DNA of 64,000 nt from Patescibacteria group bacterium. Lineage in GTDB: Bacteria > Patescibacteriota > Patescibacteriia > 2-02-FULL-49-11. How positions within the stretch are numbered: position 1 is the stretch's first letter; every line of letters starts with the position of its first letter. This document shows positions 8,170-57,941 of this stretch, in pieces. Both the position numbers and the translations under genes were made by a program. Where the stretch lies: NCBI GenBank assembly GCA_041645165.1, contig JBAZQN010000003.1, positions 28,198-92,197 of the forward strand, given 5' to 3'. The notes beneath the pieces were generated by a model, which was given only the letters and a program-made list of their open reading frames with translations, did not search any database and was not told the DNA's origin.

Positions 8170-8224
8170 ACACTTTTATTAAACATCTTCACGAAACAAT
8201 ATTACCACACGCCTTATAACCATG

Positions 8225-8596
8225 TCAAATCGGGCGGACGGAAAGGTCGGGAATCCTTCGAAAATCGCGCACATTCCTCGTCACGAGACTCGTGCCAGTG
8301 AAGAGCGCAGTGGCAGCAATCGTGCTGTCCGCGAGTGAGAGGCGATAGGTGCGCCGGATAAATCCAGTGATGCGTGCAATGCGCGAGTCGAGCGAAATCA
8401 CCGCGAGCGTGCTCAATAACCTTTCGATCCGATTTTCTTCCTCGATACTCAAATCCGGAAATCCGAAAAGTTCCGCCTCGGTGAGCGCCGACACATACAC
8501 GGTGATCGGCTCGTTGAGCAGTCCGCTCAAGATTGCGGCCGCATGAGGGTCGTCCTTGAGGTAATAGATGATCGCGTTGGTGTCGAGCGTGTACAC
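8225..8596 (-). CDS. vapC: PIN-domain toxin (VapC-like)
   Basis: YTLDTNAIIYYLKDDP...SLADSTIAATALFTGTSLVTRNVRDF: PIN acidic residues (D..E..D..N/D) pattern; start likely GTG ~8596 just after upstream antitoxin stop (track ORF extends to 8638). Confidence 0.7.
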   Translation of the reverse strand: MYTLDTNAIIYYLKDDPHAAAILSGLLNEPITVYVSALTEAELFGFPDLSIEEENRIERLLSTLAVISLDSRIARITGFIRRTYRLSLADSTIAATALFTGTSLVTRNVRDFRRIPDLSVRPI

Positions 8597-8610
8597 AAAC
8601 AGAATGTGCG

Positions 8611-8814
8611 CTACGCCTCCGCTGACGTCCGCTCCCACTCACGACGCATCTTCCGCAAGGTGAGGATGGGATCGGGTTTCCGGCGCTTCCACATCCCGCG
8701 TGCCTGTTCCCAGACGCGTGTACGGTCATTGCCGCGCAGGAGTAAGCGAAGATTCGCTTCCGCGTCACCTTTTGTACGTTCTTTTATTGGAGTCGAAATG
8801 ACAGAATATGACAT
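8611..8814 (-). CDS. putative antitoxin partner of VapC
   Basis: 67-aa ORF ending 14 bp before the PIN gene start, basic C-terminus (WKRRKPDPILTLRKMRREWE); classic TA gene arrangement. Confidence 0.5.
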   Translation of the reverse strand: MSYSVISTPIKERTKGDAEANLRLLLRGNDRTRVWEQARGMWKRRKPDPILTLRKMRREWERTSAEA

Positions 8815-8907
8815 AAAACGCCTTTTATAACCCTTACATCAATATAACTATACCCCATTCTCAAGCGTCCATCAAGTGTGTGGGGGTACTGTGTGCGGGG
8901 TACTACG

Positions 8908-9735
8908 TCAATTTATCCCTTCGCCTGCGTCCACCAACGTCCTCAAATATTTCTTTACCGCATCAATCCCTTGCCCCTGCGGCACTTTATTAAACACATC
9001 CAGCACCGCGCTGCCGACGATGGCGACATCAGCCCCCGCCTCTTTGAGTGTCTTGATATGCTCATGTGTTGAAACGCCAAATCCCACCGCGATGGACACA
9101 TCCTTATGCGCCCGAATTCTTTGAAGATGGTGCGCAAGCTCCTTATGGAGCGACGCGCGCGCGCCGGTCGTTCCTTTCTGCCCGATGAAATAGAGAAACT
9201 GGTTTGGCTTATCCAGTACTTTCTCAACTCGCTCGTCCGTGCTCACGGTGGAAAGAAACCGCATCGCTACTAAACCAGAACGCGCTGCGTGCTCCAAAAA
9301 ATGATCATGCGCTTCTTCATCAATCGGAATATCAGGAACGATGAGCCCGCTCACCCCCACCTCTGCCGCATCTCTACAAAATTGCTCGACGCCGTAATGA
9401 AAGACAAGATTAAAATACGTCATAAATAGGAGAGGTATTTTACAGTGTGCCCCAACCAAATTCTGCGCCGCGGCAAACGCATCCTTCACCTTGAATCCTC
9501 TCTTAAGCGAGACTTCATTTGCCTTCATTATCGTCGGCCCGTCAGCCAAGGGATCTGAAAAAGGAATCTGCAGCTCGATAAAATCAACGCCCGCCCCTGC
9601 CATCGCATGCACAAGCCCAATGGAATCCTGCAGCGACGGATAGCCCAAGACAATATGGGCCATGATCCCTAATCTTTTCTCCTCTTTTATTTTATTGAGT
9701 CGTGTAATAATCTTGTTCATATTCACGTGTGTCAT
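8908..9735 (-). CDS. trpA: tryptophan synthase alpha chain
   Basis: GIMAHIVLGYPSLQDSIGLVHAMAGAGVDFIELQIPFSDPLADGPTIMKA canonical TrpA motifs (start may be the Met at 9720). Confidence 0.9.
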   Translation of the reverse strand: MTHVNMNKIITRLNKIKEEKRLGIMAHIVLGYPSLQDSIGLVHAMAGAGVDFIELQIPFSDPLADGPTIMKANEVSLKRGFKVKDAFAAAQNLVGAHCKIPLLFMTYFNLVFHYGVEQFCRDAAEVGVSGLIVPDIPIDEEAHDHFLEHAARSGLVAMRFLSTVSTDERVEKVLDKPNQFLYFIGQKGTTGARASLHKELAHHLQRIRAHKDVSIAVGFGVSTHEHIKTLKEAGADVAIVGSAVLDVFNKVPQGQGIDAVKKYLRTLVDAGEGIN

Positions 9736-9833
9736 TCCCGCGAAGGCGGGAATCTAGAAAAAAAACAAACATAAAAATCGATCGTTTTCTTTTTGTTTTT
9801 TAGTTCTGGATCCCGTATCAAGTACGGGATGAC
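9731..9833. repeat. family-1 TIR-bounded palindromic element, copy b
   Basis: gtcattcccgcgaaggcgggaatctag...aaacaaacataaaaatcgatcgttttctttttgtttttt...ctggatcccgtatcaagtacgggatgac; right arm contains trpB last codons and TGA stop. Confidence 0.65.
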
Positions 9834-11119
9834 GGTAATGTTGACCTTCTCTTTAAGTATTCCTTCCAAATCTGCCCGCCGAATATATCCCCGAGAATAA
9901 ACAAATCTTTATCACCGCGTCCCGACATATTCACGACGATGATTTTTTCTTTGGATAAGGTGGGTGCAAGTTTCACGACATGCGCGAATGCGTGTGCCGA
10001 TTCAAGCGCGGCAAAGAGCCCCTCCATGCGCGCCAGAGCTTGAAATGCACTGAGCGCTTCCTCGTCGGTCGCCGACACATACTGCACTCTTCCCTTCTGG
10101 TAAAGCAGCCCATGCTCCGGCCCGATCCCCGCATAATCAAGGCCCGCAGAAATGCTATGCGTGTTTTGTATTTGCCCGTCTTCGTTCTGCAGAAAATAAG
10201 ACTTATATCCTTCAACAACCCCAAGCTTGGGATCGCGGGCTAGGCGCGCCGCGTGCTTCCCTGTTGATGTCACTCCCTCGCCCCCTGCCTCCACGCCAAT
10301 AAGACGCACGGAAGGCTCTTCCAAAAAGGTGTTGAAAATGCCTATGGCATTACTGCCGCCGCCCACGCACGCGATCACATAATCAGGGAGTTCTCTGCCT
10401 GTTTGTGCCTTTAACTGCTCCCGCACCTCAAGCCCCACAATATTCTGAAAATCGCGCACCAGAGAAGGGTAAGGGTGCGGGCCTAAAGCGCTTCCCAACA
10501 GGTAATAGCTCTCATCCACGTTCGCGATCCAGTCTTGGATGGCAGCCGTGACTGCGTCTTTTAAGCGTTTAGTGCCATGGGCAACCGGCACTACCTCAGC
10601 GCCCAATTGCTCCATCCAGAATACGTTCGGCCGCTGCCGTTCATAATCCACCTCGCCCATGTAGACGGTGCATGCAAATCCAAACTTCGCCGCGACCGTT
10701 GCGGCCGCCAGCCCATGCTGTCCCGCGCCTGTTTCTGCGATTAGGCGTTTTTTGCCCATGCGGCGAGCAAGGAGCGCCTGCCCCAGACAATGGTTCATCT
10801 TGTGCGCGCCGGTATGGTTTAATCCTTCATTTTTAATAAAAATATTCGCGCCGCCTAAGTGCGCGCTCAAATTTCGCGCAGAGGTAAGCGGCGTGGGGCG
10901 GCCGGAATAATTCTGATAGAGATCCATAAGCTCGCTCAAGAAAGTAGGATCATTTTTCGCGGTTGCATAGGCGCGCTCAAGCGCGAGTAACGCCGGCATC
11001 AAATTTTCCGGCACATACCTACCACCCAGCTCGCCAAAATGCCCCTGCGCGTCTGCATCGTACGGTGTGGAGAAAAAAATGTTCTTCACCCCGTTAGAAA
11101 TTTGTTTTGCATCTTGCAT
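9818..11119 (-). CDS. trpB: tryptophan synthase beta chain
   Basis: HFGELGGRYVPENLMPAL...HTGAHKMNHCLGQALLA...GGGSNAIGIF PLP-fold TrpB motifs; 433 aa. Confidence 0.9.
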   Translation of the reverse strand: MQDAKQISNGVKNIFFSTPYDADAQGHFGELGGRYVPENLMPALLALERAYATAKNDPTFLSELMDLYQNYSGRPTPLTSARNLSAHLGGANIFIKNEGLNHTGAHKMNHCLGQALLARRMGKKRLIAETGAGQHGLAAATVAAKFGFACTVYMGEVDYERQRPNVFWMEQLGAEVVPVAHGTKRLKDAVTAAIQDWIANVDESYYLLGSALGPHPYPSLVRDFQNIVGLEVREQLKAQTGRELPDYVIACVGGGSNAIGIFNTFLEEPSVRLIGVEAGGEGVTSTGKHAARLARDPKLGVVEGYKSYFLQNEDGQIQNTHSISAGLDYAGIGPEHGLLYQKGRVQYVSATDEEALSAFQALARMEGLFAALESAHAFAHVVKLAPTLSKEKIIVVNMSGRGDKDLFILGDIFGGQIWKEYLKRRSTLPSSRT

Positions 11120-11227
11120 AATATTTCATCCCTGTTAGAAGTCTTTCTTGTGATTTCTAACGGGGTTAATAAACAATATGACCATTTAGCCATGTATACT
11201 CGATTGCTATTCAAATTTCGATTGCAT

Positions 11228-11392
11228 CGTCGTTCCCGCCCCGTATCACGGTACGGGGTAAACCATGGCCTCGCGCAGGCGGGGCTCTTGCGGGAATCCA
11301 GACGCCGTCCTCGACCGAGATCGGGAAAAACCAAAAGAAAATCGATTTTTGCTTGTTTTTTATGTCTGGATTCCAAATCAGGTCTGGAATGA
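11228..11392. repeat. family-1 element, copy c (with nested extra hairpin module)
   Basis: gtcgttcccgcc[ccgtatcacggtacggggtaaaccatggcctcgcgcaggcgggg]ctcttgcgggaatc ... ctggattccaaatcaggtctggaatgac; same nested module as copy d. Confidence 0.6.
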
Positions 11393-11437
11393 CAATCGAA
11401 ATTGGGTTGGCAATTTATTATAACCATTACGCTATTT

Positions 11438-12073
11438 CTATTTTGCGTTTTTAATAAACAATCGTACCTTTCGCATATCTTTCACCCCCGGTTTAACTTC
11501 AACTCCGCCCGAGGCATCAATAATTCGCGATCGCGTAAACTTGATGCCATCATGGATATTTTCTGGTGTCAACCCGCCGGAGAGCACCACCTCATATCCC
11601 GCTTCAACAAGCTCACGCGCGAAGTTCCAGTCAGCACGCTTTCCGCTCCCGCCTGCCCCGTGCATTGGATTTTTTGCATCAACCAGCAGCACCTCAACGA
11701 CACTCGCGTAGTGCAGGTAATTTTGCCGCGTCACCGCTTTCCATATTATTACCCCTCGTTTTCGCAGCCGATTAACGTAGGCCGTTGTTTCATTCCCATG
11801 CAATTGCCAAATACTGATTCCCGATTCCTCGATTAACCTGCACAACCGTTCAAACGGCAGATTCACCACCACCCCCACCGTACGGGCAGAAAATTTTCTG
11901 CCCCTACACCTATTATTTACCGCCTCCTGTATCTCCCGAGCTTTCTCTCCCGTAACGCTTCTTGGACTCTTAGGAAATTCTATAACACAGCCTACAAAGT
12001 CCGCGCCTTGCCGCGCGATTTCCCGCGCCTGCGCGGGCAGTGTCACACCGCAAATTTTTACCTTTACGTTCAT
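11438..12073 (-). CDS. trpF: phosphoribosylanthranilate isomerase
   Basis: MNVKVKICGVT...position in trp operon between trpC and trpB; TIM-barrel PRAI signature KICGxT. Confidence 0.85.
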   Translation of the reverse strand: MNVKVKICGVTLPAQAREIARQGADFVGCVIEFPKSPRSVTGEKAREIQEAVNNRCRGRKFSARTVGVVVNLPFERLCRLIEESGISIWQLHGNETTAYVNRLRKRGVIIWKAVTRQNYLHYASVVEVLLVDAKNPMHGAGGSGKRADWNFARELVEAGYEVVLSGGLTPENIHDGIKFTRSRIIDASGGVEVKPGVKDMRKVRLFIKNAK

Positions 12074-12098
12074 ATCCGAAATATAAAACTTATTAGGC

Positions 12099-12920
12099 TT
12101 ATTCTGCCAACGATAACGCTCTGACCATATTTACAGGATCGCCCGATTTCATCAGCGCTTCCCCCACCAATACAGCGCGTACACCAGCATGGTGCCACTT
12201 CCGTACTATTTCAGCTGATACAACGCCGGACTCGCCGATCAGTAAGGGCAAAAAATCTTTTGCCCCTACGGCACGTGTCGCCGTTCTTGCCAATCTCACC
12301 ACCCTATCCACATCCACCGTCAAATCAACCAGACTCCGCGCGTTTATCCCGATAATTTCTGCGCCAATCTTCATGGCACGTTCAAAATCCTCCTCTTGTT
12401 CCACTTCCACCAATACCTGAAGCCCAAGCGCACGGCTTAATTGAAAGAGCCTTTTTAGTTCATCGTCTTCAAGCCATCTGGTAATAAGGAGCACGAGATC
12501 TGCGCCTGCCGCCTTGGATTCATACACCTGATACTCGCTGATGATGAAATCTTTGCGCAAAAATGGCATGGAGGGGAAACTCTCTTTCAGTTGCTTCAAT
12601 TCTTCCAATGAACCGTTAAAATAATTCGGCTCGGTAAGCACGGATATGGCGACTGCGCCGCCATCCACGTACGCCTGCACCTGCGCCAGATGGTCGCGGC
12701 CGCTGATCATGCCTGCGTTCGGGCTTGCGTGCTTGATCTCACCGATAACCGCGACAGGGCTCTGCCGCCTTACGATGCGTTCCTTTATGTCAACGAGGAG
12801 CAGTGTCCGCACGGCCGCTAGCCGCTTCAAATCCTCCAAAGGAACAGCCGCCTCTTCTTTCTGAACGCGTTCCTGAATGATTGGATAAATTTTTCCTAAA
12901 AATCCATTCAAATTTTTCAT
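12099..12920 (-). CDS. trpC: indole-3-glycerol phosphate synthase
   Basis: IGEIKHASPNAGMI...AISVLTEPNYFNGSLEELK...FLRKDFIISEYQV IGPS motifs; start at ATG 12918-12920 (track ORF begins TTG 12926). Confidence 0.9.
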   Translation of the reverse strand: MKNLNGFLGKIYPIIQERVQKEEAAVPLEDLKRLAAVRTLLLVDIKERIVRRQSPVAVIGEIKHASPNAGMISGRDHLAQVQAYVDGGAVAISVLTEPNYFNGSLEELKQLKESFPSMPFLRKDFIISEYQVYESKAAGADLVLLITRWLEDDELKRLFQLSRALGLQVLVEVEQEEDFERAMKIGAEIIGINARSLVDLTVDVDRVVRLARTATRAVGAKDFLPLLIGESGVVSAEIVRKWHHAGVRAVLVGEALMKSGDPVNMVRALSLAE

Positions 12921-12928
12921 ACTCAACT

Positions 12929-13074
12929 GTCATTCCCGCCCCGTATGCCGCTACGGGGTAAACCATGGCCTCGCGAGGCGGGGCTCCGGCGGGAATCCAG
13001 ATAAATAACAAACATGAATTACCGATCGTTTTCTTTTTGTTTTATCTAGATCCCGTATCTCGGTACGGGATGAC
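12929..13074. repeat. family-1 element, copy d (with nested hairpin module)
   Basis: gtcattcccgcc[ccgtatgccgctacggggtaaaccatggcctcgcgaggcgggg]ctccggcgggaatccag...aacaaacatgaattaccgatcgttttctttttgtttt...gatcccgtatctcggtacgggatgac. Confidence 0.65.
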
Positions 13075-13099
13075 AACAGGACGTATTCGTGCCCGATAA

Positions 13100-14122
13100 T
13101 CAACTTTTCAACCTATTACTCACCTCAATAAACTTTTCCAACAACTTCGTCGCTTCCCCATTCGTCACTGCCTCTCTCGCTATTGCAATCCCTTCTCCAA
13201 CATCCTTCGCTTGCCCCGCCACATACAACGCCGCACCGCTGTTGAAAAGCACCGTATCAAGCCGCGCTCCTTTCTCTCCCGAGAGCACGGCACGGATAAT
13301 CGATGCATTCTCCTGTACATCACCACCTCTCAGGTCATTGTTCGTCGCGTGCGAAAAACCGTAATCCTGCGGATCTAAGACATACTTCTCGATAATTCCT
13401 CGCTTCACTTCATACGCGTCAGCAGTGGCCGTAGTGGTAAGCTCGTCGTGCCCATCCCCACTGCGCACTACCATTGCGTGTTCGCTGCCTAAAAGCCGTA
13501 GAGTTTGCGCAATTATCTGCATCTTCGCGGGATCGGCAATGCCGATAATTTGCCGCCGCGGCATCGCGGGATTCACGAGCGGCCCTAAGATATTGAACAG
13601 CGTGCGCACTCCAAGCTCTTTCCGCACTGGCCCCACCTTCGCAAACGCAGGGTGATACAGAGGCGCGAAGAGAAACACAATACCCGCTTCTTCTAAACAG
13701 CGGCTTGCCTGCGCGGGCGTGAGATTAATATTCACACCCAGCGCTTCCAGGACGTCCGCGCTCCCGCACGCGCTCGAGACCGCCCGGTTGCCGTGTTTTG
13801 CCACTTTCACTCCGCACGCCACGACGACCAGCGCGGTTGCCGTAGAAATGTTGAAAGTGCCTCTGCCATCGCCGCCAGTCCCGCACGTATCAAAAACTTC
13901 CGTGTGTGCGCCGGGTAAGGCTATTGCGTGGGTGCGGAGCGACCGCACAAAACCCACGATCTCCTCTGCAGTTTCGCCTTTTATGCGAAGTGCTACCAAC
14001 AATGCGGCAATCTGCGCAGGGGTATAGTCCCCTCCTATAATCGTTTCCATCACTAGCTCTGCCTCTGTTAAAGTAAAGCTCTCTCGATTGAGTATTTTGT
14101 TGAGTATTTCAGAGTATATCAT
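13100..14122 (-). CDS. trpD: anthranilate phosphoribosyltransferase
   Basis: AALLVALRIKGETAEEIVGFVRSLRTHA...DTCGTGGDGRGTFNISTATALVVVACGVKVAKHGNRAVSS TrpD signature. Confidence 0.9.
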   Translation of the reverse strand: MIYSEILNKILNRESFTLTEAELVMETIIGGDYTPAQIAALLVALRIKGETAEEIVGFVRSLRTHAIALPGAHTEVFDTCGTGGDGRGTFNISTATALVVVACGVKVAKHGNRAVSSACGSADVLEALGVNINLTPAQASRCLEEAGIVFLFAPLYHPAFAKVGPVRKELGVRTLFNILGPLVNPAMPRRQIIGIADPAKMQIIAQTLRLLGSEHAMVVRSGDGHDELTTTATADAYEVKRGIIEKYVLDPQDYGFSHATNNDLRGGDVQENASIIRAVLSGEKGARLDTVLFNSGAALYVAGQAKDVGEGIAIAREAVTNGEATKLLEKFIEVSNRLKS

Positions 14123-14697
14123 AGGCCTAAAAAATTCTTTATTAAATCCATACCCAATTCCGTCCTAATCGATTCGGGATGGAACTGAATACCCTCAATA
14201 GGAAATTGGCGATGCCGCACGCCCATGATCTGCCCGTCATCCTTTGCGAGGGCCGTAATCTCGAGGCATGCAGGGAGGCTTTCCCTCTCGCCCGCGAGAG
14301 AATGATAGCGCATGCCCTGCAAGGGACTGGCAAGACTCTTGAAAATACCTTTTCCTTCGTGCACGATAAGGCTCACTTTGCCGTGTTTGACGACTGGCGC
14401 GCGCACCACGCGCCCCCCAAACGCCGCAATAATCCCCTGATGCCCGAGACACACGCCCAACACCGGCGTCGTTTTTCCGCATTCAAGAATAACGTCTTTA
14501 CATACACCGAAGTATTGGGGGTCCGTAGGATCGCCCGGGCCCGGGGAAATGACGACATGGGTATACCCTCCTCCCCTCACGTCATCTAATGTGACTGCAT
14601 CATTCCTTTCTACCACAGGATTTCCTCCCAACATCCCCACATATTGGTAGAGGTTGTAGGTGAATGAATCGTAGTTGTCGATAATAAGTATTTTCAT
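14119..14697 (-). CDS. trpG: anthranilate synthase component II (glutamine amidotransferase)
   Basis: MKILIIDNYDSFTYNLYQYV...GVCLGHQGI class I GATase triad context; 4-nt overlap with trpD. Confidence 0.9.
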   Translation of the reverse strand: MKILIIDNYDSFTYNLYQYVGMLGGNPVVERNDAVTLDDVRGGGYTHVVISPGPGDPTDPQYFGVCKDVILECGKTTPVLGVCLGHQGIIAAFGGRVVRAPVVKHGKVSLIVHEGKGIFKSLASPLQGMRYHSLAGERESLPACLEITALAKDDGQIMGVRHRQFPIEGIQFHPESIRTELGMDLIKNFLGL

Positions 14698-14867
14698 AAT
14701 CTTTCTTCTTCCCTTCTCCTCCTAGTGGGCGGGGTTAATCTCAGAGTGAGGATTAGCCGTTGAAAAACCCTCCGCAGTCCCGCAGTGGCGGGACGAGGCG
14801 GAGTGCCCCGCCGCGCTGGAGGCGGGGACGCGTGTTTTTCCAACGGACAAGCCGAACGACTGTACGT

Positions 14868-16169
14868 TCACACTCGCGCACACGCTACCGCCTGTTGTAT
14901 TGCCCTCTGTTTATTCATAATCTCCTCATATTCCTTCTCGCACACCGAATCATACACAATCCCGCTTCCTGACCTGGTATATGCCTTGTTGCCTGAGACA
15001 AAGAGCGAACGGATCGCAATCGCAAACATCGCATCGCCATTCACGCTAAAATATCCGACAGACCCCCCGTACAAACCGCGCGGGCTCCTCTCCAATGCGG
15101 CGATTATTTTCATTGCCTCAATCTTGGGCGCGCCAGTGAGCGTGCCTGCGGGGGCGCACGCCGCCAGAACATCAAAACTGTCCAACCCTTTGCGCAGAGT
15201 CCCGCGTATTTCTGTCGATAAATGCTGCACATGGCTATAGCGCTTCACTGCCATGAGCCCTTCTACGCGCACGCTCCCGAACTCCGCCACCCTGCCGACG
15301 TCATTGCGCGCCAAATCCACGAGCATCATGTGTTCTGCCACTTCCTTTTCGTCGGATTTTAATTGCGCCGCAAGACGCTCATCCTCTTGCCTGTCTGCGC
15401 CGCGCTTTATGGTCCCGGCAAGCGTGCCAAAATGCTCAATTGCGTGCCCCTTGGTCCTGAATAACAATTCCGGCGATGCACCCAGCGCATACCTTTCCCG
15501 GAACTTCATACAATACATGTGCGGCGAAGGATTAATTTCGCGCAGGTTCCCGTACACCGCGACTGGCGATCCTGCACACTCATACTCAAACCCCACAGAA
15601 AATACAATCTGAAATGCATCGCCCCTCCCCACATGCTCTTTGATTGATGCAAACGCCTCTTGGTATTGCGGCAGCGACATATCCGAGGTGTGCGATTCCA
15701 CCTCAAAACGGGGTGTCTCACCATGTTTTTTTAGCATCTCCTTGAACTGCGCTCTCCTGTCCTTTTCAAGCGTGAAGTACCGTATTGATTGCGTGTGCTT
15801 ATCAAAAATAAAACCATCAAGGTAGAGTCCGAACTCAAATTGGGGAAAATACGGCTGCTTTTTCCCCGAGAAAGCCGGTTCAAAAAGCGCCGTGCCGTCA
15901 TATGAGACATATCCCACCAGACCGCCATGATAATGCGGCGGCAGCCCCTCGACATGGGGAAGCAGACCCTTTAACGCGGCATAATCAGTAGTGGCATCAG
16001 AAACCACTGATTGCGGCTCCGCGCCAAGGTACGTGAAACGGGAAAACTCCGATTCCGCGCCAAGCGACTCAAGGATAAAAGCGTTTTCGCAGCGCTGTGC
16101 AAGCCTTTCAAATATCTCAAATGGCTTTAAATCGGTGCTAAATTCGAACTCTTGATATTGAAAACTCAT
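14868..16169 (-). CDS. trpE: anthranilate synthase component I
   Basis: 433-aa chorismate-binding enzyme (…GTLTGAPKIEAMKIIAALERSPRGLYGGSVGYFS…) at head of trp operon. Confidence 0.9.
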   Translation of the reverse strand: MSFQYQEFEFSTDLKPFEIFERLAQRCENAFILESLGAESEFSRFTYLGAEPQSVVSDATTDYAALKGLLPHVEGLPPHYHGGLVGYVSYDGTALFEPAFSGKKQPYFPQFEFGLYLDGFIFDKHTQSIRYFTLEKDRRAQFKEMLKKHGETPRFEVESHTSDMSLPQYQEAFASIKEHVGRGDAFQIVFSVGFEYECAGSPVAVYGNLREINPSPHMYCMKFRERYALGASPELLFRTKGHAIEHFGTLAGTIKRGADRQEDERLAAQLKSDEKEVAEHMMLVDLARNDVGRVAEFGSVRVEGLMAVKRYSHVQHLSTEIRGTLRKGLDSFDVLAACAPAGTLTGAPKIEAMKIIAALERSPRGLYGGSVGYFSVNGDAMFAIAIRSLFVSGNKAYTRSGSGIVYDSVCEKEYEEIMNKQRAIQQAVACARV

Positions 16170-29120: not shown

Positions 29121-29656
29121 AGGACTATATAAAACTGACCAAGAATATAGAAATTGACTAGGTAGAATAGCACTATGGCTAATCCCTCCATAACTACTCT
29201 TATATTCTCCCACTTTCTGTCTTGATTGACAATATGTTTGGTTATACACCAAGAGCCGCAGGAAACGACTTTTACGATTCCTCCGCTGCAATTTACTCTC
29301 TTTCAGGATGGATCATTGATATTTTTAACTTAAGGCCATGACGCGGCAGAGGAAGGCATCGCAGATAATCTCGAAAAAGAGACTCCCCACCAGGAAATGC
29401 GAGGAAGGTAAGGCTTACCATGCCGTCATAGCCTGGCTCCGGTGAAAATGAAATGGCGGGAGGCTGATCGGGAGGAAGCGTCTGCGCCGTACTGGGAATA
29501 AAAAACACCCTCCGAAAAGAGTGTTCTTGTTTGATTACCAACCTGCTGTGAGGTTTTTGAGACGGAAACGGGCCTGCCGCGCCGGAGTCCAGAATCTCTG
29601 GACGCAGGTGGGTCTCTTCCTCCAGAGGCGGACAAGCGAACCGCGCAATAATTTGA

Positions 29657-29710
29657 CTCCGAGGGCGAGATTCGAATCCCAAACCAATCCGCCGCAATTT
29701 CTCTGGCTCC
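29657..29710. repeat. left copy of 54-bp direct repeat (putative attL of genomic island)
   Basis: ctccgagggcgagattcgaatcccaaaccaatccgccgcaatttctctggctcc; identical (1 mismatch) to 48205-48258 which overlaps the tRNA-Asn 3' end. Confidence 0.6.
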
Positions 29711-48089: not shown

Positions 48090-48164
48090 CCCCCGATCAG
48101 GTGAGGACAGCGTCTGGATCCCCGATCAAGTCGGGGATGACAGGTGGAGAGCGCGGGAATGACA
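48090..48164. repeat. family-1 element, partial/rearranged copy e
   Basis: ctggatccccgatcaagtcggggatgac…gcgcgggaatgaca. Confidence 0.5.
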
Positions 48165-48167: not shown

Positions 48168-48207
48168 CAAAAACACCCCGTAAAAGGGGTGTTAAAAATC
48201 AAAACTC
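48168..48207. repeat. conserved hairpin module (copy 2)
   Basis: caaaaacaccccgtaaaaggggtgttaaaaatcaaaactc; compare 23741-23778. Confidence 0.5.
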
Positions 48208-48258
48208 CAAGGGCGAGATTCGAATCCCAAACCAATCCGCCGCAATTTCTCTGGCTCC
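48205..48258. repeat. right copy of 54-bp direct repeat (putative attR), overlapping last 7 nt of tRNA-Asn
   Basis: ctccaagggcgagattcgaatcccaaaccaatccgccgcaatttctctggctcc. Confidence 0.6.
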
Positions 48259-48326
48259 GAGACCGGGATTCGAACCCGGAACCAACTGCTTAACAGGCAG
48301 CTGCTCTACCATTGAGCTATCTCGGA
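48252..48326 (-). tRNA. tRNA-Asn (anticodon GTT), CCA encoded
   Basis: Minus-strand TCCGAGA-TA-GCTC-AATGGTA-GAGC-A-GCTGC-CTGTTAA-GCAGT-TGGTT-CCGGG-TTCGAAT-CCCGG-TCTCGGA-G-CCA folds as cloverleaf with 7-bp acceptor, GTT anticodon. Confidence 0.85.
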
Positions 48327-50406: not shown

Positions 50407-50504
50407 GAAGGAATACCAATTTTTCGAGGACTTATGCCTGTTTCAGACAGGCATAAGCGTTCAAGCTGCTAAATCGCGTCCGCAGAAAAATTGTGTATTC
50501 CTGA
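50407..50504. repeat. family-2 TIR-bounded element, copy C (with extra 27-bp palindrome)
   Basis: gaaggaataccaatttttcgaggac[ttatgcctgtttcagacaggcataag]cgttcaagctgct…cgcgtccgcagaaaaattgtgtattcctga in the rpoD-dnaG intergenic region. Confidence 0.6.
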
Positions 50505-50708: not shown

Positions 50709-52526
50709 TCAAAATTCAAGCTCGGCAAGCGCTTGCGTGAGCACGGTGAATTCCCTGCTCAGCGCGTCAAGCTCGGCAGTGTCCTTAGCTGCCGTTGTAG
50801 GCAAATTTTTTTGTTCGCGCTCCCGGATAATCCGCGAGAGCGCTTCCACACGCTCTTTCAGCACGAGCCGCTTCAGCGACCGTGCCAGATGAGTGATTTC
50901 TTGGAGAAGCTCCGAATCGCTTCTTCCTTGATACTCGAGGTCCCCGCGGGTGGCGAGGATTTGGACGTTTCTGTGAAGCTCTGGTAGAGACGCTTCAATC
51001 GTCGCAATGAGATGTTCGCTGGTGTGGATTCTTGACTCACTGTACCAAGAAGTGAGCATCTTGTAAAGCGCCTGATGCGGCTCCGGCACATACTCATGGG
51101 CAATGATCTGGACCGCATGCGGTATCATGGGAGGCGTAGTGAGCAAAAGCGAAAGCATGCGCTCCGTCAAACTCTGCGCAGGAAGAAAGGGCACTGCTTC
51201 CTTCACGGGCGCCGCGGCGGCGCGCGTGCCCTGCGATGAGGAGACAGCTTTGGCAAGCGCTTCGCGCAATGCCTGTTCTGACACACGCAGTTCTTCAGAC
51301 ATGCGCTTTACATAATGGTCGCGCTCAATCGGGTCCGCGAGCTTGAGAAGGTAAGGAAGCAGTGCGCCGGCAACCGCCTTTTTATCCTGTACGGTATCTC
51401 CAGGATGCTCTAGGCGGGCTTGCGTAAATAAATATTCAAGGATCGGCTGGCTTGCATTAACCGCCCCGATAAACGCTTCCTTGTCTTTCCGCACCACTTC
51501 ATCAGGGTCTTTGCCTTTATTCTTAGGCAATCGGGCTAATTTTACCGTGAAGCCGGCTGCCCAGGCGAGTTCGAGCCCGCGCAGCGCCGCGCCTTTTCCG
51601 CCCGCATCGACATCGAAACACAACACGAGCGTGTCCGTGACGCGCTTGAGAAGGATGAGTTGCAGCTCCTCGAGATTAAATGAAGTTCCTGACGAGGCTA
51701 TGGTATTGCGGATACCCGCCTGCCATAAGGAAGTAACATCCATTTGCCCCTCCACCACCAGCGCAAACCCTTGTGCGCGTATGTCCTGTTTGGCTTTATC
51801 GAGACCGAAAAGTACCGCACGTTTGTGATACAGCAGGGTTTCGGGCGTGTTCACGTACTTGCCCCCTTCCTCCTTATTTTCTTTGAGCTGCCTGCCGGTA
51901 AACCCAACGATGGCGCCATGGTGGTCCCGCAGAGGAAACATAATCCTGTCGCGGAAACGGTCGTAGACACCGCGCTCTCTCCCCGGCAAGGCCATACCCG
52001 CGTTTACCATCTCCTGGTCGCGATATCCTTTCGCGCGCAAAAAGCGCGTGAGCTCTTCCCAACCCTGCGGCGCGTAGCCTAAGAGCCATTCCTCGAGCGT
52101 GTCAGGGATAAGACCGCGTGTTTCTTTTAAATAACGCAGGGCTTCTGCGCCTCGCGCGGTCTGCAGCTGAACCGCAAACCACTGCGCGGACGCGGAAAGG
52201 AGCTCCCTCATCCTCTGCCGCTCACTCTTAAGCTGCGGATCCTCCCGTTTCAATTCAACATTCGCTTTTTTCGCGAGGATCTCCAACGCTTCCGGAAATT
52301 CAATATTCTCGATCTTCTGGATAAACGTAAACATGTCTCCCCCAAGATTACACCCGAAACAATGCCACATCTGCCTTCCCCGGTGCACCATGAATGAAGG
52401 GGTTTTTTCATGATGAAACGGGCACAAACCTTTGAGGTTTGCACCTGCCATCTTCAGCGGCACGTATTCTTGGATAATATCCACGATATCCAGCCGCGAT
52501 TTGATGTCATCGACAGGAGAGAACAT
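50709..52526 (-). CDS. dnaG: DNA primase
   Basis: CPFHHEKTPSFMVHRGRQMWHCFGCNLGGD zinc-binding domain; TOPRIM (…VVEGQMDVTSLWQAG…); upstream of rpoD as in MMS operon. Confidence 0.9.
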   Translation of the reverse strand: MFSPVDDIKSRLDIVDIIQEYVPLKMAGANLKGLCPFHHEKTPSFMVHRGRQMWHCFGCNLGGDMFTFIQKIENIEFPEALEILAKKANVELKREDPQLKSERQRMRELLSASAQWFAVQLQTARGAEALRYLKETRGLIPDTLEEWLLGYAPQGWEELTRFLRAKGYRDQEMVNAGMALPGRERGVYDRFRDRIMFPLRDHHGAIVGFTGRQLKENKEEGGKYVNTPETLLYHKRAVLFGLDKAKQDIRAQGFALVVEGQMDVTSLWQAGIRNTIASSGTSFNLEELQLILLKRVTDTLVLCFDVDAGGKGAALRGLELAWAAGFTVKLARLPKNKGKDPDEVVRKDKEAFIGAVNASQPILEYLFTQARLEHPGDTVQDKKAVAGALLPYLLKLADPIERDHYVKRMSEELRVSEQALREALAKAVSSSQGTRAAAAPVKEAVPFLPAQSLTERMLSLLLTTPPMIPHAVQIIAHEYVPEPHQALYKMLTSWYSESRIHTSEHLIATIEASLPELHRNVQILATRGDLEYQGRSDSELLQEITHLARSLKRLVLKERVEALSRIIREREQKNLPTTAAKDTAELDALSREFTVLTQALAELEF

Positions 52527-52534: not shown

Positions 52535-52622
52535 AAAAATCCCAATGTCAAAATCCCAATGTCAAATGAAATCCCAATAACCAATATCAAATTTGACATT
52601 TGAAATTTGAATTTTGACATTA
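52535..52622. repeat. AT-rich tandem TTGACA-containing repeats (promoter-like)
   Basis: aaaatcccaatgtcaaaatcccaatgtcaaatgaaatcccaat…aaatttgacatttgaaatttgaattttgacatt upstream of dnaG; related array at 56770-56867. Confidence 0.45.
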
Positions 52623-52638: not shown

Positions 52639-54177
52639 TTATTCCCACTCGATCGTGCCCGGCGGTTTGCTGGTGAGATCATAAAGGACGCGGTTGACGC
52701 CCTCCACCTCATTGGTAATCCGCGTGGCGAGGCGTGCGAGCACGTCCTCGGGAATACGCGCCCAATCCGCGGTCATCGCATCCTCTGAGGTTACGGCGCG
52801 CACGACGATGGGATGCGCGTACGTACGCTCATCGCCCTGCACGCCCACAGAACGCACCTCCGGCAGAAACGCAGCATAATATTGCCACAATTTTAATTTT
52901 TTTGCGAGCGGGTCTAGCGTTTCGCGCACGATCGCGTCCGCCTGCGCGAGGGTCTTCAGGCGCCCTTCATCCACCGCGCCCACAATCCGCACGGCAAGGC
53001 CGGGACCGGGAAACGGCTGGCGCTCCACCACTGCGCGCGGGAGCCCCAAAATCCTTCCCACCTCCCTGACCTCATCTTTGAAGAGCATGCGCAGCGGTTC
53101 AATAAGTTTCAAATGCATGCGCGCAGGCAGCCCTCCCACGTTGTGGTGCGTTTTGATGGTGCTTGCCGTCCTGCCGCTTCCCGCCATTGCCGATTCGATC
53201 ACGTCAGGATAAAGCGTGCCTTGGACCAAAAAGGCGGGTTTTGATTTCAGCCGTTTTGCCTCTCTCTGGAACACTTCAATAAAAGTCCGTCCTATGATCT
53301 TCCTCTTCTCCTCTGGATCGCTTACCCCTTTTAATTTATGCAAAAATAATTGCGGCACGCGCACCACCTTCAAATCCGCCTTCAGCATGCGCCGCATCGC
53401 CTGCGCCACTTCTTGTTCCTCGCCCAAGCGAAGCAGGCCGTGGTTCACGAACACCGCAATAAGCCGGTGGCCGAGGGCATGGTGCACGAGCGTGGTGGCC
53501 ACCGCCGAGTCCACGCCGCCGGAAAGCGCGGCGATCGCGTATCCCTTGCCCGCCTTTGCTTTAATTTCCTCTATGGCTGACGTCACGAACGACGGCATAG
53601 ACCAATCCGGCGTGAGGCCTGCAATACGGACCAGAAAATTCTCAAGCATTTTTTTTCCAAACTGCGTATGCACGACTTCCGGATGGAATTGCACGCCCCA
53701 TATATTCTTTTCCTTATCCCCCACGAGGGCAAATGGGGAATGTGCAGTCACGCCATATGCGTGAGTGCCTTTGGGGAGCCGCACGACGGCATCGCCATGG
53801 GACATCCATACTCTCAATTGCTGAGGGAGACCGGCAGTGAATGGCGATCCGCGGACAATCTTTACGCTCGCGGGGCCGTATTCTCTCTGCTTCATCCTTA
53901 CCACTTTCCCTCCGGTGAGATAACACGTCAGCTGCTGGCCATAACATATCCCTAAAATGGGAATGCCCAGCGCAAACAATTCTTTCGGCACGCGCGGCGC
54001 TCCCTCTGTATATACTGATGAAGGCCCTCCGGAAAGAATAATCGCGTGTGCCTGCTTGAGCCTCTCAAGCGGCGAGCGATAAGACACCAGCTCCGCGGAA
54101 AATCCCAACTCGCGCACCCTACGGGCGATCAACTGGCTGTACTGCGCGCCAAAATCAATGACAAAAACTTGGGACAT
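52639..54177 (-). CDS. guaA: GMP synthase (glutamine-hydrolysing)
   Basis: N-terminal GATase (…GICYGQQL…) + ATP-PPase SGGVDSAV P-loop + C-terminal dimerisation domain ending …PGTIEWE. Confidence 0.9.
   Translation of the reverse strand: MSQVFVIDFGAQYSQLIARRVRELGFSAELVSYRSPLERLKQAHAIILSGGPSSVYTEGAPRVPKELFALGIPILGICYGQQLTCYLTGGKVVRMKQREYGPASVKIVRGSPFTAGLPQQLRVWMSHGDAVVRLPKGTHAYGVTAHSPFALVGDKEKNIWGVQFHPEVVHTQFGKKMLENFLVRIAGLTPDWSMPSFVTSAIEEIKAKAGKGYAIAALSGGVDSAVATTLVHHALGHRLIAVFVNHGLLRLGEEQEVAQAMRRMLKADLKVVRVPQLFLHKLKGVSDPEEKRKIIGRTFIEVFQREAKRLKSKPAFLVQGTLYPDVIESAMAGSGRTASTIKTHHNVGGLPARMHLKLIEPLRMLFKDEVREVGRILGLPRAVVERQPFPGPGLAVRIVGAVDEGRLKTLAQADAIVRETLDPLAKKLKLWQYYAAFLPEVRSVGVQGDERTYAHPIVVRAVTSEDAMTADWARIPEDVLARLATRITNEVEGVNRVLYDLTSKPPGTIEWE
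54133..54177. repeat. 45-bp direct repeat copy 1 (= authentic 5' end of guaA)
   Basis: ctggctgtactgcgcgccaaaatcaatgacaaaaacttgggacat identical to 55449-55493. Confidence 0.7.
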
Positions 54178-54208
54178 AATGCTTAAAATGAGAATAGTGA
54201 ATTATTAA

Positions 54209-55411
54209 TCAGGGGTGCATCACGCCTTTATTAAGAAATGAGAGTATTTCATCAGCCGCCTTTCGGTAACCGCCGCTCGTTAAAAAAGATTGCCTTATTT
54301 TCTCAGCTGAACTCACATATGCTCCCTCATGTAACACCTTTTTTGCGGCCATCGCTAATATCTGTGGAGTTACCGCAGAACGATCAATCATGATACCCGC
54401 CCCAAGTCGCTCTACGCGGCGCGCATTTAATTCCTGCTCCAGAGTCGAAGGAATCATGACAAGAGGCGTCTGGTAATACATGCCTTCGCTCACACTATTC
54501 AATCCGCCATGGGTTATAAAGAGTTTCGCTCTTTTAAGAATCGCTTTTTGGTCAACAAACGTTTCGACTTGAAAATGAGAGGGCAGATGAGTGAAATGTG
54601 TCTGCGTAAGGCGCCCGCCCAGAGACAGTATGACATGATAATCCATGCCTTTGAATGCCTCAAAACATATTTCAAAAAAATTATCTAACCGATCAAATAA
54701 GGTGCCGAGAGAAATATAAATAATATTTTCCTTTGCCTCTCTGTTGCCTTCCTCCTGTTCCTCATCGATAGATGCCCCGATAAATTTGTATTCCTCGCCA
54801 AAGAATCGCTCAAAGGGTTGGAAATAACGCGAAGTATACACGATATTCAGCTTTTCCCTATTGTATATAATATCCTTAAATATGCTTTTGCGTACCCCAA
54901 AAGTCTTGCATAAACGGCGCGCAACATTTATATATTTCCCGAATTGGGACGCGCCTTTGAGGGTAAACTTCCAAAGATAAGGCGTTCTTAAGGTCATCCG
55001 TCCGTTCATCAAACCAATGGGGACGGAGCAAATGGCGGGGGTATTTGTCTTGAGGGCAGCTATTTTCCCTCCTAACACCATTGCATCATGAATGAGAAAA
55101 TCCGGCTTCGTCTTTTCAATATCCTCAATACCTGAAGTGATGAATTTCTCCGTATATTCTAATATCGCAAGCCAAAAATCGGTGAGTCCGCGACTCCTCA
55201 AACACTGAACCAGCTTGTCTTCGAGCGCCGAATAAAAATCATTTCCGTAGGGATAGCGTTTAAACGCTATACCATGTCCTTCTATAACCTTCCTAAATTT
55301 ATCTGTGGAGTAATATATCATTTCTACCCCTCTCCTCGTCAGCTCACGGCAGACAGGCAGGGTTGGCAAAGTATGTCCCCAAACTGGTAAACTAAAAAAT
55401 AATCCTCTCAT
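54209..55411 (-). CDS. GT1-family UDP-glycosyltransferase (MGT/macrolide-glycosyltransferase-like)
   Basis: MRGLFFSLPVWGHTLP N-terminus and C-terminal …ITHGGLNSVSEGMYYQTPLVMIPSTLEQELNARRVE donor-binding motif; start at internal Met (track ORF extends to 55522 through duplicated guaA fragment). Confidence 0.8.
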   Translation of the reverse strand: MRGLFFSLPVWGHTLPTLPVCRELTRRGVEMIYYSTDKFRKVIEGHGIAFKRYPYGNDFYSALEDKLVQCLRSRGLTDFWLAILEYTEKFITSGIEDIEKTKPDFLIHDAMVLGGKIAALKTNTPAICSVPIGLMNGRMTLRTPYLWKFTLKGASQFGKYINVARRLCKTFGVRKSIFKDIIYNREKLNIVYTSRYFQPFERFFGEEYKFIGASIDEEQEEGNREAKENIIYISLGTLFDRLDNFFEICFEAFKGMDYHVILSLGGRLTQTHFTHLPSHFQVETFVDQKAILKRAKLFITHGGLNSVSEGMYYQTPLVMIPSTLEQELNARRVERLGAGIMIDRSAVTPQILAMAAKKVLHEGAYVSSAEKIRQSFLTSGGYRKAADEILSFLNKGVMHP

Positions 55412-55448
55412 GTATTTTATGCGACTGATCGAAAAAATATAATCCAAG

Positions 55449-55493
55449 CTGGCTGTACTGCGCGCCAAAATCAATGACAAAAACTTGGGACAT
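55449..55493. repeat. 45-bp direct repeat copy 2 (duplicate of guaA start incl. ATG)
   Basis: Same 45 bp; creates a 33-codon uORF MSQVFVIDFGAQYSQLGLYFFDQSHKIHERIIF overlapping the GT start. Confidence 0.7.
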
Positions 55494-55534
55494 GGGAAAA
55501 TAATGAAAAACTCAAAATGCATAATGGTTCGACA

Positions 55535-55645
55535 GGCTCACCATGACATTTCTGTCACCCTGAGCTTATCGAAGGGTCACGCCGAAGGCTCACCATAACA
55601 ACCACTTTCTTGTCATCCTGAGCCCGACGAAGGATGATTTTTGAA
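55535..55645. repeat. two tandem degenerate palindromic units (family related to family 1)
   Basis: ggctcaccatgacatttctgtcaccctgagcttatcgaagggtcac / ggctcaccataacaaccactttcttgtcatcctgagcccgacgaaggatgat. Confidence 0.5.
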
Positions 55646-56659
55646 TCACGATCTTATAAAGCTCGCCTCGAACCCGTTCTCACTGCACTTGGTCAGTTCG
55701 CTTGCGGTGAAAATTTTATTTTTCTTAAGCAATTCATACTCCTGCTTTAGGTTGGTCCCGTGCATTTCAGGGCCGTCCGTGTTGATCGTGAGACGCACGT
55801 GGTGCTCTAAAAGAGTCCGGAAAATGCGGCGCATCTCTTCCACGCTCTTGATGACGCCCACATTCAGGTTGGAGGTGGGGCAGAGCTCAAGGGTAATATT
55901 TTTTTCTGCAACCATATGCATCAATCCCGTGTCCTGCCATGCGAGAAATCCATGCCCGATCCGGTGGGGGGCGATATGTTCCACAATATATTTCATCTCT
56001 TTCACAGATCCTTCCTCGCCCGTATGGATAGTGGCTCCGAAACCAAGATCTTTTGCTTCCTGAAACAAGCTCTCGTATTCCTCAATATGGAACGCAGGGC
56101 TCTGCGGCCCTGCAAGGTCAATGCCCACGATCCCCCGATGCTGGTATTTCTTTGCTTTTTCAAAAATGATGGTATTCAGCTTCTTGGGGTATTCCCGGTC
56201 AAGCATCAGGATTAATCCCGCGCGCACCGAAGGGTATTCAAAGAGCGCATTTTCCATTCCGCGGATTGCTGCAAGAATAATGTAATCAAGATCGCGCTCT
56301 CCGCCGCGATTGCGCTTCATGGGATTGAACCGGAGCTCGTGCACGACGACGTTATTCGCGCGGTACGCGCCTCCTATGGTGCCGTGCACTGCCGGCTCGA
56401 TCGCCAAAGGGGATGATTGGATGAGCTCGGTCCAGTGATATAATTGCCGATCAACCTCCAAAAAGCGATGAAACTTTCCTTTCTCCTTAATAGTGACCAT
56501 CCGTTCGAACTCCCAATAATCCTTCGTCGGCAATTTGATCCCCTGTTCGTGCGCCAAGGTCCACAAGATTGCGGCGTCCACGGCGCCGCCGAGATGAGAG
56601 TGAAGCTCGGTTAGAGGAGGACCGGCGGGATGATTAGTAATTGAAGACTCACTTTTCAT
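55646..56659 (-). CDS. add: adenosine/adenine deaminase-family metallohydrolase
   Basis: LHSHLGG…HTGEEGS…TINTDGPEMHG metal-ligand motifs of adenosine deaminase superfamily. Confidence 0.8.
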   Translation of the reverse strand: MKSESSITNHPAGPPLTELHSHLGGAVDAAILWTLAHEQGIKLPTKDYWEFERMVTIKEKGKFHRFLEVDRQLYHWTELIQSSPLAIEPAVHGTIGGAYRANNVVVHELRFNPMKRNRGGERDLDYIILAAIRGMENALFEYPSVRAGLILMLDREYPKKLNTIIFEKAKKYQHRGIVGIDLAGPQSPAFHIEEYESLFQEAKDLGFGATIHTGEEGSVKEMKYIVEHIAPHRIGHGFLAWQDTGLMHMVAEKNITLELCPTSNLNVGVIKSVEEMRRIFRTLLEHHVRLTINTDGPEMHGTNLKQEYELLKKNKIFTASELTKCSENGFEASFIRS

Positions 56660-56769: not shown

Positions 56770-56867
56770 AACTCAAATGCCAAATTAAATTCAAAATCAC
56801 AACGCCAAAACTTTGACATTTAGGCTTTGACATTTATTTGAACTTTGAAATTTGTCATTTGAACTTA
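56770..56867. repeat. AT-rich TTGACA-containing tandem repeats
   Basis: aaaactttgacatttaggctttgacatttatttgaactttgaaatttgtcatttgaac between guaB stop and add start. Confidence 0.45.
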
Positions 56868-57941
56868 TCAATAATTTGGCGCATGCTTCGTAATAAATAC
56901 TGAATGCGGGTGGCTCTCTCTCATGCCTGCATCGGTGATGCGGATAAAGTGAGCTTTCCTCTGGAGCTCGGGAATGTTGCGCGCGCCCACATATCCCATC
57001 CCGCTTCTTAATCCTCCCACAAGCTGGGTAATTATGTCCGAAAGCGGCCCCTTGAGAGGCACCGCGCCTTCCACCCCTTCGGGTACGTATTTTTTTGACC
57101 CTTTTTGGAAATATCGATCAGCGCTTTGCCCCACGTTCATGGCTCCCAAACTTCCCATACCGCGATAGGTTTTGTACGCCACGCCTTCGATGATCACTTT
57201 TTTCCCCGGCGCTTCATCCGTACCGGCAAACAGGCTCCCCAGCATGACAGCGGACGCGCCCGCGGCAAGCGCTTTCACAATATCGCCGGAGTGCCGGATG
57301 CCCCCGTCCGCGATCACGGGAATCCCTTTTTGTTTCGCGACCCGCGCCACTTCCATGATCGCGGTCAATTGCGGCACGCCTACACCAGCGACGATCCGCG
57401 TCGTGCAAATGGAACCAGGCCCTACACCCACCTTGAAGCCGTCGGCCACGCCTAAAAATGCGCGCGCCGCTTCTGCGGTTGCCATATTGCCCACAATGAG
57501 CTTTGCCTTTATTTTTTTCTTTAATGCTTTGGCAGCGGCAACGGAAGATGGCTTGTGGATATGCGCGGAATCAAATACTATCACGTCCACGCCCGCCTTA
57601 TCAAGCGCAAGGGCCCTCTCTCTATCGCCTGGCCCTACGGCAGCGGCAACCTTATTTTTGATTTTTGATTTTTGATTTTTGATTTCGTGAATCATCTTTA
57701 CCTGCTCTTCCACGGTGCAATTGCGATGCAATACCCCCATCCCCCCCGCTTCACCTAAGGCTGCGGCGAAACGGGCGTCGGTCACGGTGTCCATTGCCGC
57801 AGAGAGCAAAGGAAGGATAAGCGGCAATCCTTTGGCCGCATATGACGAAATATCAGCCTCGCGCGGGCTGATGGCAGATTCTTGCGGAATCAGGAGAACA
57901 TCGTCAAAAGTAAGACCAAACGGAGTCTTTGAGGTTTCCAT
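56868..57941 (-). CDS. guaB: IMP dehydrogenase lacking the CBS subdomain
   Basis: [11 protein letters not shown]…SAAMDTVT…GPGSICTTR…[20 protein letters not shown]…YVPEGVEG; CBS pair replaced by short [10 protein letters not shown] linker; 357 aa. Confidence 0.8.
57655..57682. repeat. (TTTTTGA)x4 heptanucleotide tandem repeat inside guaB
   Basis: tttttgatttttgatttttgatttttga encoding [10 protein letters not shown] on minus strand. Confidence 0.8.

Follow-up and report, generated by a model that had tools for sequence, protein, structure and literature searches.

A single-gene glycosyltransferase islet between direct repeats of the guaA 5′ end in a Patescibacteria genome, a candidate product of repeat-mediated integration

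Integrative elements that depend on tyrosine recombinases recombine within direct repeats of 8-60 bp, and they integrate at the 3′ ends of housekeeping genes or, less often, at the 5′ ends, where one of the repeats holds the gene end and the gene is left undisrupted (PMC5704250). Cis-mobilizable elements (CIMEs), described in Streptococcus, are decayed elements that have kept attL and attR and lost the integrase (PMC5704250). The 3′ end of guaA is the target of ATE-1 in Trueperella, of GIsul2 in Pseudomonas and of an IncP island in Brucella (PMC5704250, Table 1); SXT/R391 integrates in prfC, at its 5′ end, and the repeats of ICEBs1 are 60 bp long (PMC5812530). Here we describe a locus at guaA in a 64,000-nucleotide stretch of DNA from a Patescibacteria group bacterium (assembly GCA_041645165.1, contig JBAZQN010000003.1, positions 28,198 to 92,197; the whole stretch is called the window, and coordinates are given within it), in which a glycosyltransferase (GT) gene lies between two copies of the first 45 nt of guaA. 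Our preferred reading, to which we assign a probability of roughly 55%, is that the GT gene constitutes a horizontally acquired, single-gene islet of 1,271 bp that integrated in the guaA 5′ end of an Uhrbacteria-like Patescibacteria genome when a guaA segment carried by the element recombined with the chromosomal one.

The repeat is the starting point of the argument. The 45-mer CTGGCTGTACTGCGCGCCAAAATCAATGACAAAAACTTGGGACAT is found at 54133-54177 (copy A) and at 55449-55493 (copy B) in plus-strand coordinates, with 100% identity and a start-to-start distance of 1316 bp. These are its only occurrences in the window when up to three mismatches are allowed, and none was seen in 100 dinucleotide-preserving shuffles (0 expected by chance), so that the perfect 45-bp repeat of the guaA 5′ end reported in an earlier reading of the letters alone (the sequence-only reading) stands. 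On the minus strand the 45-mer reads as ATG plus 14 codons and encodes the peptide MSQVFVIDFGAQYSQ, which is guaA codons 1-15. Copy A opens a 512-aa open reading frame (ORF) with complete GATase and GMP_synt_C domains, that is, guaA, which runs on into TTGATCGCC; after copy B the sequence runs on into CTTGGATT on the GT side. Of the 1,271 bp between the copies, GT fills 1,203 bp. The Rfam search of the window returned a single tRNA and no riboswitch or leader that would account for the repeat. All genes of the locus lie on the minus strand, in the order guaB, add, a 152-nt intergenic region, copy B, a 37-nt leader, GT, a 31-nt spacer, copy A with guaA, and dnaG:

56868-57941, minus strand: guaB (IMP dehydrogenase), first gene of the conserved guaB-add-guaA-dnaG array (domain matches and relatives)
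55646-56659, minus strand: add (adenosine deaminase), the upstream neighbour of guaA in all relatives (domain matches and relatives)
55494-55645, minus strand: native add-guaA intergenic region with two ~40-nt palindromic elements, resembling repetitive extragenic palindromes or miniature inverted-repeat transposable elements (REP/MITE-like; alignment to contig L083, fold with two hairpins)
55449-55493, minus strand: repeat copy B, attL-like; original guaA start codon plus 14 codons, with the native upstream still attached (repeat search, comparison with contigs L084/L085 and L083)
55392-55493, minus strand: 33-codon upstream open reading frame (uORF), MSQVFVIDFGAQYSQLGLYFFDQSHKIHERIIF, whose first 15 codons are the guaA stub (ORF list, sequence)
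55412-55448, minus strand: A/T-rich 37-nt cassette leader from copy B to the GT start codon, without a Shine-Dalgarno sequence (sequence)
54209-55411, minus strand: glycosyltransferase gene, 400 aa, MGT family, GT1; ATG at 55411, stop codon at 54209-54211 (TIGR01426, Pfam)
54178-54208, minus strand: 31-nt spacer from the GT stop to the functional guaA ATG; cassette-derived and now the guaA 5′ leader (homology to the spacer of contig L082)
54133-54177, minus strand: repeat copy A, attR-like; first 45 nt of the functional guaA (repeat search, ORF list)
52639-54177, minus strand: guaA (glutamine-hydrolysing GMP synthase), intact, 512 aa (GATase and GMP_synt_C)
50709-52526, minus strand: dnaG (ORF and domain assignment)

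The guaA product falls in the same 90% cluster as the GMP synthase of a Candidatus Uhrbacteria bacterium, and 16 related contigs (L081-L096) were retrieved, with guaA nucleotide identities to the window of 92.8% for L081 and L086-L096, 89% for L084 and L085 and 73% for L083. Readable context without GT is present in 15 of them (L081 and L083-L096), the sixteenth being L082. In all 15, add is directly followed by guaA across a 100-130-nt spacer, with no GT and with one copy of the repeated segment; the longer contigs show the array guaB-add-guaA-dnaG-rpoD. Because these contigs have no GT between add and guaA, the gene is an insertion, and they supply both the empty site (attB) in related genomes that is expected of a CIME and the comparison with GT-less genomes that the sequence-only reading had proposed as a check. 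The two sides of the insertion also differ in their relation to the relatives. The first 16 nt past the add stop are identical in the window and L083, and the last ~35 nt before the copy B ATG (TGCATTTTGAGTTTTTCATTATTTTCCC) align with the native guaA upstream sequence of L083 (TGCATTTTGGATTTTGCATTGATTCCCT), so that the DNA 5′ of copy B is, judged by this alignment, the native guaA upstream region. The 31-nt spacer in front of copy A is unrelated to the native guaA upstream regions of the relatives. Since the flank of copy B is the native upstream region, deletion of one repeat together with the 1,271 bp would give a locus of ancestral type, in which guaA is rejoined to that region, as had been suggested before.

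Alignment with the relatives also places the break in the ancestral gene. Copy B with two further nucleotides on each side (CC ATG...CAGCCAG CT) forms a 49-nt match to the native guaA start of L084 and L085. Beyond the repeat, the relatives and L082 read ...CAGCCA(G/T) CTG ATC; copy B goes on with CT, and copy A has TTG. The duplicated identity may originally have extended over perhaps 47 nt, with a synonymous CTG to TTG change (C to T) arising later in copy A. In ancestral coordinates the break is, on these alignments, 45-47 nt inside the guaA coding sequence and not at the start codon, which corrects the earlier placement of the insertion exactly at the guaA start. No comparable gene-start duplication was found elsewhere in the window or in the relatives, where only intergenic REP-like repeats turned up.

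A second occurrence of the GT-guaA junction comes from L082, a 1.7-kb scaffold from a project and sample different from those of the window (sample SAMN03202995). It starts with the last 83 nt of a GT gene, 86.7% identical to the window GT (13% diverged), followed by a homologous spacer (~78% identity, one indel) and guaA; its upstream junction lies off the contig. Over 26 codons the two GT genes show eight synonymous differences versus 3 nt in two non-synonymous codons, an excess that indicates purifying selection on GT. By this comparison the junction is present in a second, clearly different lineage. The guaA of L082 is itself a hybrid: its first 18 nt (ATGTCCCAAGTTTTTGTC) are of the window, or cassette, type at seven of seven informative sites (nt 6-21), and from nt 48 on almost all sites are of the GT-less L081/L086 type, with 99-100% identity. 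The L081-type strain's own guaA start is ATGTCTTCGCAAGTATTGGTT. The switch of type falls inside a 26-nt core, ATTGATTTTGGCGCGCAGTACAGCCA, shared without a mismatch by the window, L082 and the 12 contigs of L081 type (L081, L086-L096), with 1 nt different in L084/L085 and several in L083. This hybrid would be the expected gene-proximal product if a circular cassette with its own guaA 5′ segment had recombined in the shared core, and integration through the repeat predicts just such a crossover, one that stays within the 45 nt. If homologous recombination ended at a random point, we estimate that this point would lie within the first 45 of the 1539 nt in only ~3% of cases.

The cargo is compositionally foreign. 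GT has a GC content of 43.3% and a third-position GC content (GC3) of 44.4%, compared with 56.9% and 65.1% for guaA, 51% and 61% for add, and 54% and 58% for guaB; GC3 of the neighbouring core genes is 58-68%, versus 44% for GT. Among the 1.2-kb segments listed at or below ~44% GC, the only others lie at 35-41 kb, in the restriction-modification and defence region. The protein gives a full-length match to TIGR01426 (MGT) at 308.8 bits, above the cut-off of 260 (residues 6-394 on model positions 1-392 of 393), and matches EryCIII-like_C, Glyco_tran_28_C and UDPGT in Pfam, in agreement with its earlier assignment as a GT1 glycosyltransferase. Its scores against the macrolide-inactivating equivalogs (Mgt/OleI-type) are 127.5 bits for NF033129 and 105.8 bits for NF000362, with cut-offs of 700. 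On these profiles GT is a member of the MGT family only, and membership in the specific macrolide-inactivating equivalogs is not supported. Judged by its family, it probably transfers sugar to a small molecule, for example an antibiotic or a xenobiotic. The deposited annotation is a 437-aa protein starting at 55522 (MFA4872668.1, P0001; 'macrolide family glycosyltransferase [Patescibacteria group bacterium]'). Because its N-terminal extension is native guaA 5′ untranslated region and copy B translated in a non-guaA frame, outside the family model, the extension is, in our analysis, spurious and the start lies 111 nt too far upstream.

In a search of 5.8 billion proteins the sole close match to GT was the window's own protein, and the next best had at most 40% identity. 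The closest homologue (P0002, 39% identity; contig L097) sits in an unrelated neighbourhood without repeats. Exact-protein look-ups of the window guaA, the 400-aa and 437-aa GT and the uORF returned no recorded contig. A search of guaA against genome contigs gave, among the matches listed, 51-55% identical homologues from other phyla and none closely related, and metagenome contigs scanned with the degenerate MSQVFVIDFGAQYSQ pattern yielded 0 matches.

We propose that the 45-bp (perhaps once 47-bp) repeats correspond to attL and attR. In this model a circularised cassette would bring its own copy of the first 15 guaA codons and recombine with the guaA 5′ end of the chromosome, most probably inside the 26-nt core. 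The catalyst could be a site-specific recombinase that acted in trans or has since been lost, as for CIMEs, or host homologous recombination (RecA) in a Campbell-type single crossover. The outcome is visible at both ends: the gene-proximal copy and the 31-nt cassette spacer regenerate an intact guaA, and what remains of the original promoter-proximal start is a stub of 15 codons that reads into the cassette. Through recombination of one repeat with the other, the cassette would be lost precisely and the ancestral locus recovered; the hybrid repeat of L082 is the one indirect hint of such excision and re-integration. That the identity begins at the ATG fits, by analogy, element-borne copies that restore a target gene's end. 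As in CIMEs, the repeats correspond to the end of a housekeeping gene (guaA codons 1-15, with guaA intact and all its domains present), and GT is the only gene between them, with no integrase or transfer genes inside. The islet is a candidate member of the CIME class, not an established one. The identity of the copies deserves separate comment. The cassette has diverged by 13-22% (GT, spacer) between the lineages of the window and L082, and at that divergence we estimate that a neutral copy B would have gained roughly 3-5 changes; there are 0 in 45 nt. That copy B is unchanged despite this divergence suggests that it was converted or re-integrated, that it is under constraint, or that it arose more recently.

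Copy B reads into the cassette as the 33-codon uORF, which is in the ORF list and, as the sequence-only reading had it, overlaps the GT start; its stop (55392-55394) lies 17 nt beyond the GT ATG, an out-of-frame overlap of 20 nt. A GT-guaA fusion is ruled out, the uORF being out of frame with GT. The exact uORF peptide occurs once in the protein collection, with the source 'gem' and possibly from the same assembly, and guessed hybrid uORF peptides gave no match there. The uORF may feed ribosomes to the GT start. Shine-Dalgarno sequences are nearly absent (almost none of the 26 window gene starts checked), and translation in this genome probably starts from leaders that are A/T-rich and unstructured. 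A promoter and terminator scan of the minus strand found no sigma-70-like or terminator-like site between add and GT or between GT and guaA; consensus matches fell inside GT only, as did one terminator-like site that probably reflects chance. Lying inside the same-strand guaB-add-guaA-dnaG array, GT is probably expressed from the purine-operon and native guaA signals.

The intergenic regions of the array carry repeats of their own. A/T-rich repeats of the TTTGACA/TGTCAAA type lie at 52536-52622, 56787-56867 and 57654-57687 in the window, as well as at 1540-1640 in L082 and at 5898-5985 and 7555-7865 in L083, and could be promoter or regulator-binding motifs common to the array genes. Two ~40-nt palindromes fill 55494-55645 (GCTCAGG[A/G]TGACA...TGTCATGGTGAGC, with the motif GTSAYCCTGAGC-N4-CGAAGGRT) and occur nowhere else in the window. 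The add-guaA intergenic regions of the relatives are without these palindromes and have short repeats of their own, of the CCCGAATA type in L081 and of the CGAATATAC type in L084.

Several points weigh against integration through the repeat. No integrase, recombinase, resolvase or transposase was found among ORFs of at least 150 aa across the window, and searches of the protein collection, JGI metagenome contigs, viral contigs, plasmids and phages brought up neither a parent element nor any GT relative above 40% identity (at most 35% in plasmids). Mobility therefore rests on two occurrences. Of these, the left junction, from copy B to GT, is seen in this one assembly only, and the L082 scaffold is of poor quality (an N gap, a cluster of private differences, and part of guaA replaced), so that its hybrid pattern could be an inter-strain assembly chimera. 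The islet is 1.3 kb long, without a recombinase and with one gene; described CIMEs are much larger. In a genome nearly devoid of Shine-Dalgarno sequences, the A/T-rich leader of GT may also suffice alone, which would make coupling to the uORF optional.

Other origins of the repeats have been weighed against the same evidence. Insertion as a transposon with a target-site duplication is rejected: the ends of the insert lack terminal inverted repeats, no transposase was found among ORFs of at least 150 aa, and the repeat has 45 bp, too long for such a duplication (typically 2-15 bp), as had already been argued. Also rejected is an integron cassette; the 31-nt spacer has no palindrome, no attC palindrome is present in the spacer or the cassette ends, and no IntI was found among ORFs of at least 150 aa in the window. 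An unlikely account is a de novo duplication of 45 bp at a single illegitimate insertion, in which linear foreign DNA was caught at a staggered double-strand break or replication template switch and 45-nt overhangs were filled in; the cassette would then have no guaA segment of its own and would not be mobile, and it would have reached the L082 lineage through ordinary homologous recombination that used the flanking genes. The lack of a recombinase, of inverted repeats and of att-like secondary structure suits it, as do a cassette of a single gene with two known occurrences only and window copies as identical as in a fresh duplication. It has to treat as coincidence, however, that the first duplicated nucleotide is precisely the A of the ATG, when a start further upstream would be equally viable; a crossover inside the 45-nt segment, as in L082, is improbable for a random homologous-recombination endpoint; and the 13-22% divergence of GT and spacer points to an old event, yet copy B equals copy A over 45 nt.

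More doubtful still is that the islet is the decayed remnant of a larger island (an integrative and conjugative element, ICE; an integrative and mobilizable element, IME; or a prophage-like element) whose internal deletions left GT and the att repeats, which would be a sub-case of our preferred reading. The literature definition of a CIME fits it (PMC5704250), in L083 this neighbourhood includes, a few kb downstream, genes for a large serine recombinase and a DDE transposase, and the window holds another repeat-flanked low-GC island beside a tRNA-Asn. With 1,203 of 1,271 bp taken by GT, however, there are no remnant ORFs or pseudogenes between the repeats, and no larger homologous element turned up in protein, metagenome, viral, plasmid or phage collections. 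We consider it very improbable that the arrangement is an assembly artefact, a chimera of GT-bearing and GT-less strains joined at the guaA 5′ sequence with the upstream copy in no single genome, even though the sequence comes from a metagenome-assembled genome (MAG), GT-less relatives exist in other samples, the left junction has been seen once and L082 shows signs of strain mixing. A de Bruijn path from the 45-mer into CTTGGATT should need real junction k-mers, and this requirement means that a guaA-derived segment of at least k-1 nt precedes GT in some real molecule. The GT-guaA junction was moreover assembled independently in L082 with a diverged GT, the reading frame, uORF and native upstream homology are coherent, and the exact uORF peptide stands in a second catalogue ('gem'), though possibly from the same assembly. 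The sequence-only reading had left the choice between recombination-mediated cassette insertion and an assembly artefact; of the two, insertion is now favoured and the artefact is weakened by the L082 junction.

A bolder version of integration through the repeat, which we offer only as a speculative and rather unlikely possibility, is that the cassette is a minimal, recombinase-free mobile unit. It would use the ultra-conserved 45-nt guaA start as a homing arm, circularise by recombination of one flanking copy with the other, re-insert in other Uhrbacteria via the 26-nt core by host recombination alone, regenerate guaA each time and turn the native guaA initiation region into a leader uORF that serves to express GT. 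Repeated recombination or conversion would then account for two copies that are still identical although the cassette has diverged by 13-22% between lineages.

Elsewhere in the window, a 55-nt direct repeat (98% identical; 29656-29710 and 48204-48258) starts at the 3′ end of the tRNA-Asn gene (48252-48326, minus strand) and recurs 18.5 kb away, where the distant copy lies inside an ORF without a Pfam match; the repeat has the tRNA T-arm-like motif GGGATTCGAATCTCGCCC. The DNA between its copies is partly low in GC and holds a type III restriction-modification pair (N6_N4 methylase and Res III) with Schlafen/AlbA_2, NYN, Translin-like and RecQ-like genes. The region is possibly a defence island linked to the tRNA; it yielded no integrase. 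Intergenic hairpin repeat families of REP/MITE-like character (e.g. TGTCATTCCCGCGAAGGCGGGAATC, TCTGGATCCCCGATYAARTCGGGGATGACA) lie at 1592-1685, 9730-9834, 11229-11394, 12929-12975 and 48113-48142, and a 78-nt repeat of similar look recurs between genes at 3606-3683, 5597-5674 and 50423-50500. At 195-16169, genes for shikimate dehydrogenase, EPSP synthase, dehydroquinase II, DHQ synthase, prephenate dehydratase, DAHP synthase and trpA, B, F, C, D, G and E are contiguous; shikimate and aromatic amino-acid biosynthesis is unusual for Patescibacteria genomes, also known as genomes of the candidate phyla radiation (CPR).

Among the relatives, the dnaG of L084 (9704-12706) encodes 1000 aa with a faint LAGLIDADG_3 match, versus 605 aa in the window, which suggests an intein, and the same long dnaG is called as two pieces in L085 (2084-5086). 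L083, with 79% guaA amino-acid identity, carries its serine recombinase (Resolvase/Recombinase/Zn_ribbon_recom) and DDE transposase at 11209-13539, just downstream of rpoD.

The mobile genetic elements of Patescibacteria/CPR bacteria, whose genomes are small, have been poorly described. The locus offers a base-resolved example of an accessory gene slotted into an essential purine operon that stays undamaged, potentially reversibly by way of the repeats, and it draws attention to an enzyme of a CPR bacterium that may modify small molecules or antibiotics. If the cassette does move by its own guaA arm, it would be among the smallest site-targeted gene vehicles known, and gene-start duplications would be a signature by which similar islets could be found in other MAGs.

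Compared with known systems, the geometry of the islet is, by analogy, that of a stripped-down site-specific integrative element, with no new principle. Like CIMEs, it places cargo between direct repeats, one of which holds a housekeeping gene end, and recombination and transfer genes are absent inside; unlike them, it lies at a gene 5′ end, has a Patescibacteria host and has no known cognate integrase or parent ICE or IME. Like SXT/R391, it is inserted in an essential or housekeeping gene at the 5′ end, where the element side gives the new 5′ end and upstream signals, whereas SXT is ~100 kb long, encodes Int/Xis and conjugation machinery and has a short identity segment, of 17 bp. ATE-1, GIsul2 and the Brucella island likewise make guaA a recurrent attachment gene with flanking direct repeats that hold the gene end, but these islands, and with them SaPIbov1, which is also located at the GMP synthase gene, use the 3′ end, carry tyrosine integrases and exceed 10 kb.

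The remaining parallels are of a more formal kind. Campbell-type integration of a suicide vector has an identical geometry, with the insert between duplicates of the homology and loss by recombination possible; unlike laboratory vectors, the islet is natural, has an arm of 26-47 bp and lacks a vector backbone. As in the target-site duplications of transposons, target sequence is directly duplicated on both sides. Integron cassettes differ from the islet in having attC, attI and IntI, where its own flanks are copies of the target gene 5′ end; like them, it appears to be a single promoterless gene that would take its expression from upstream host or platform signals.

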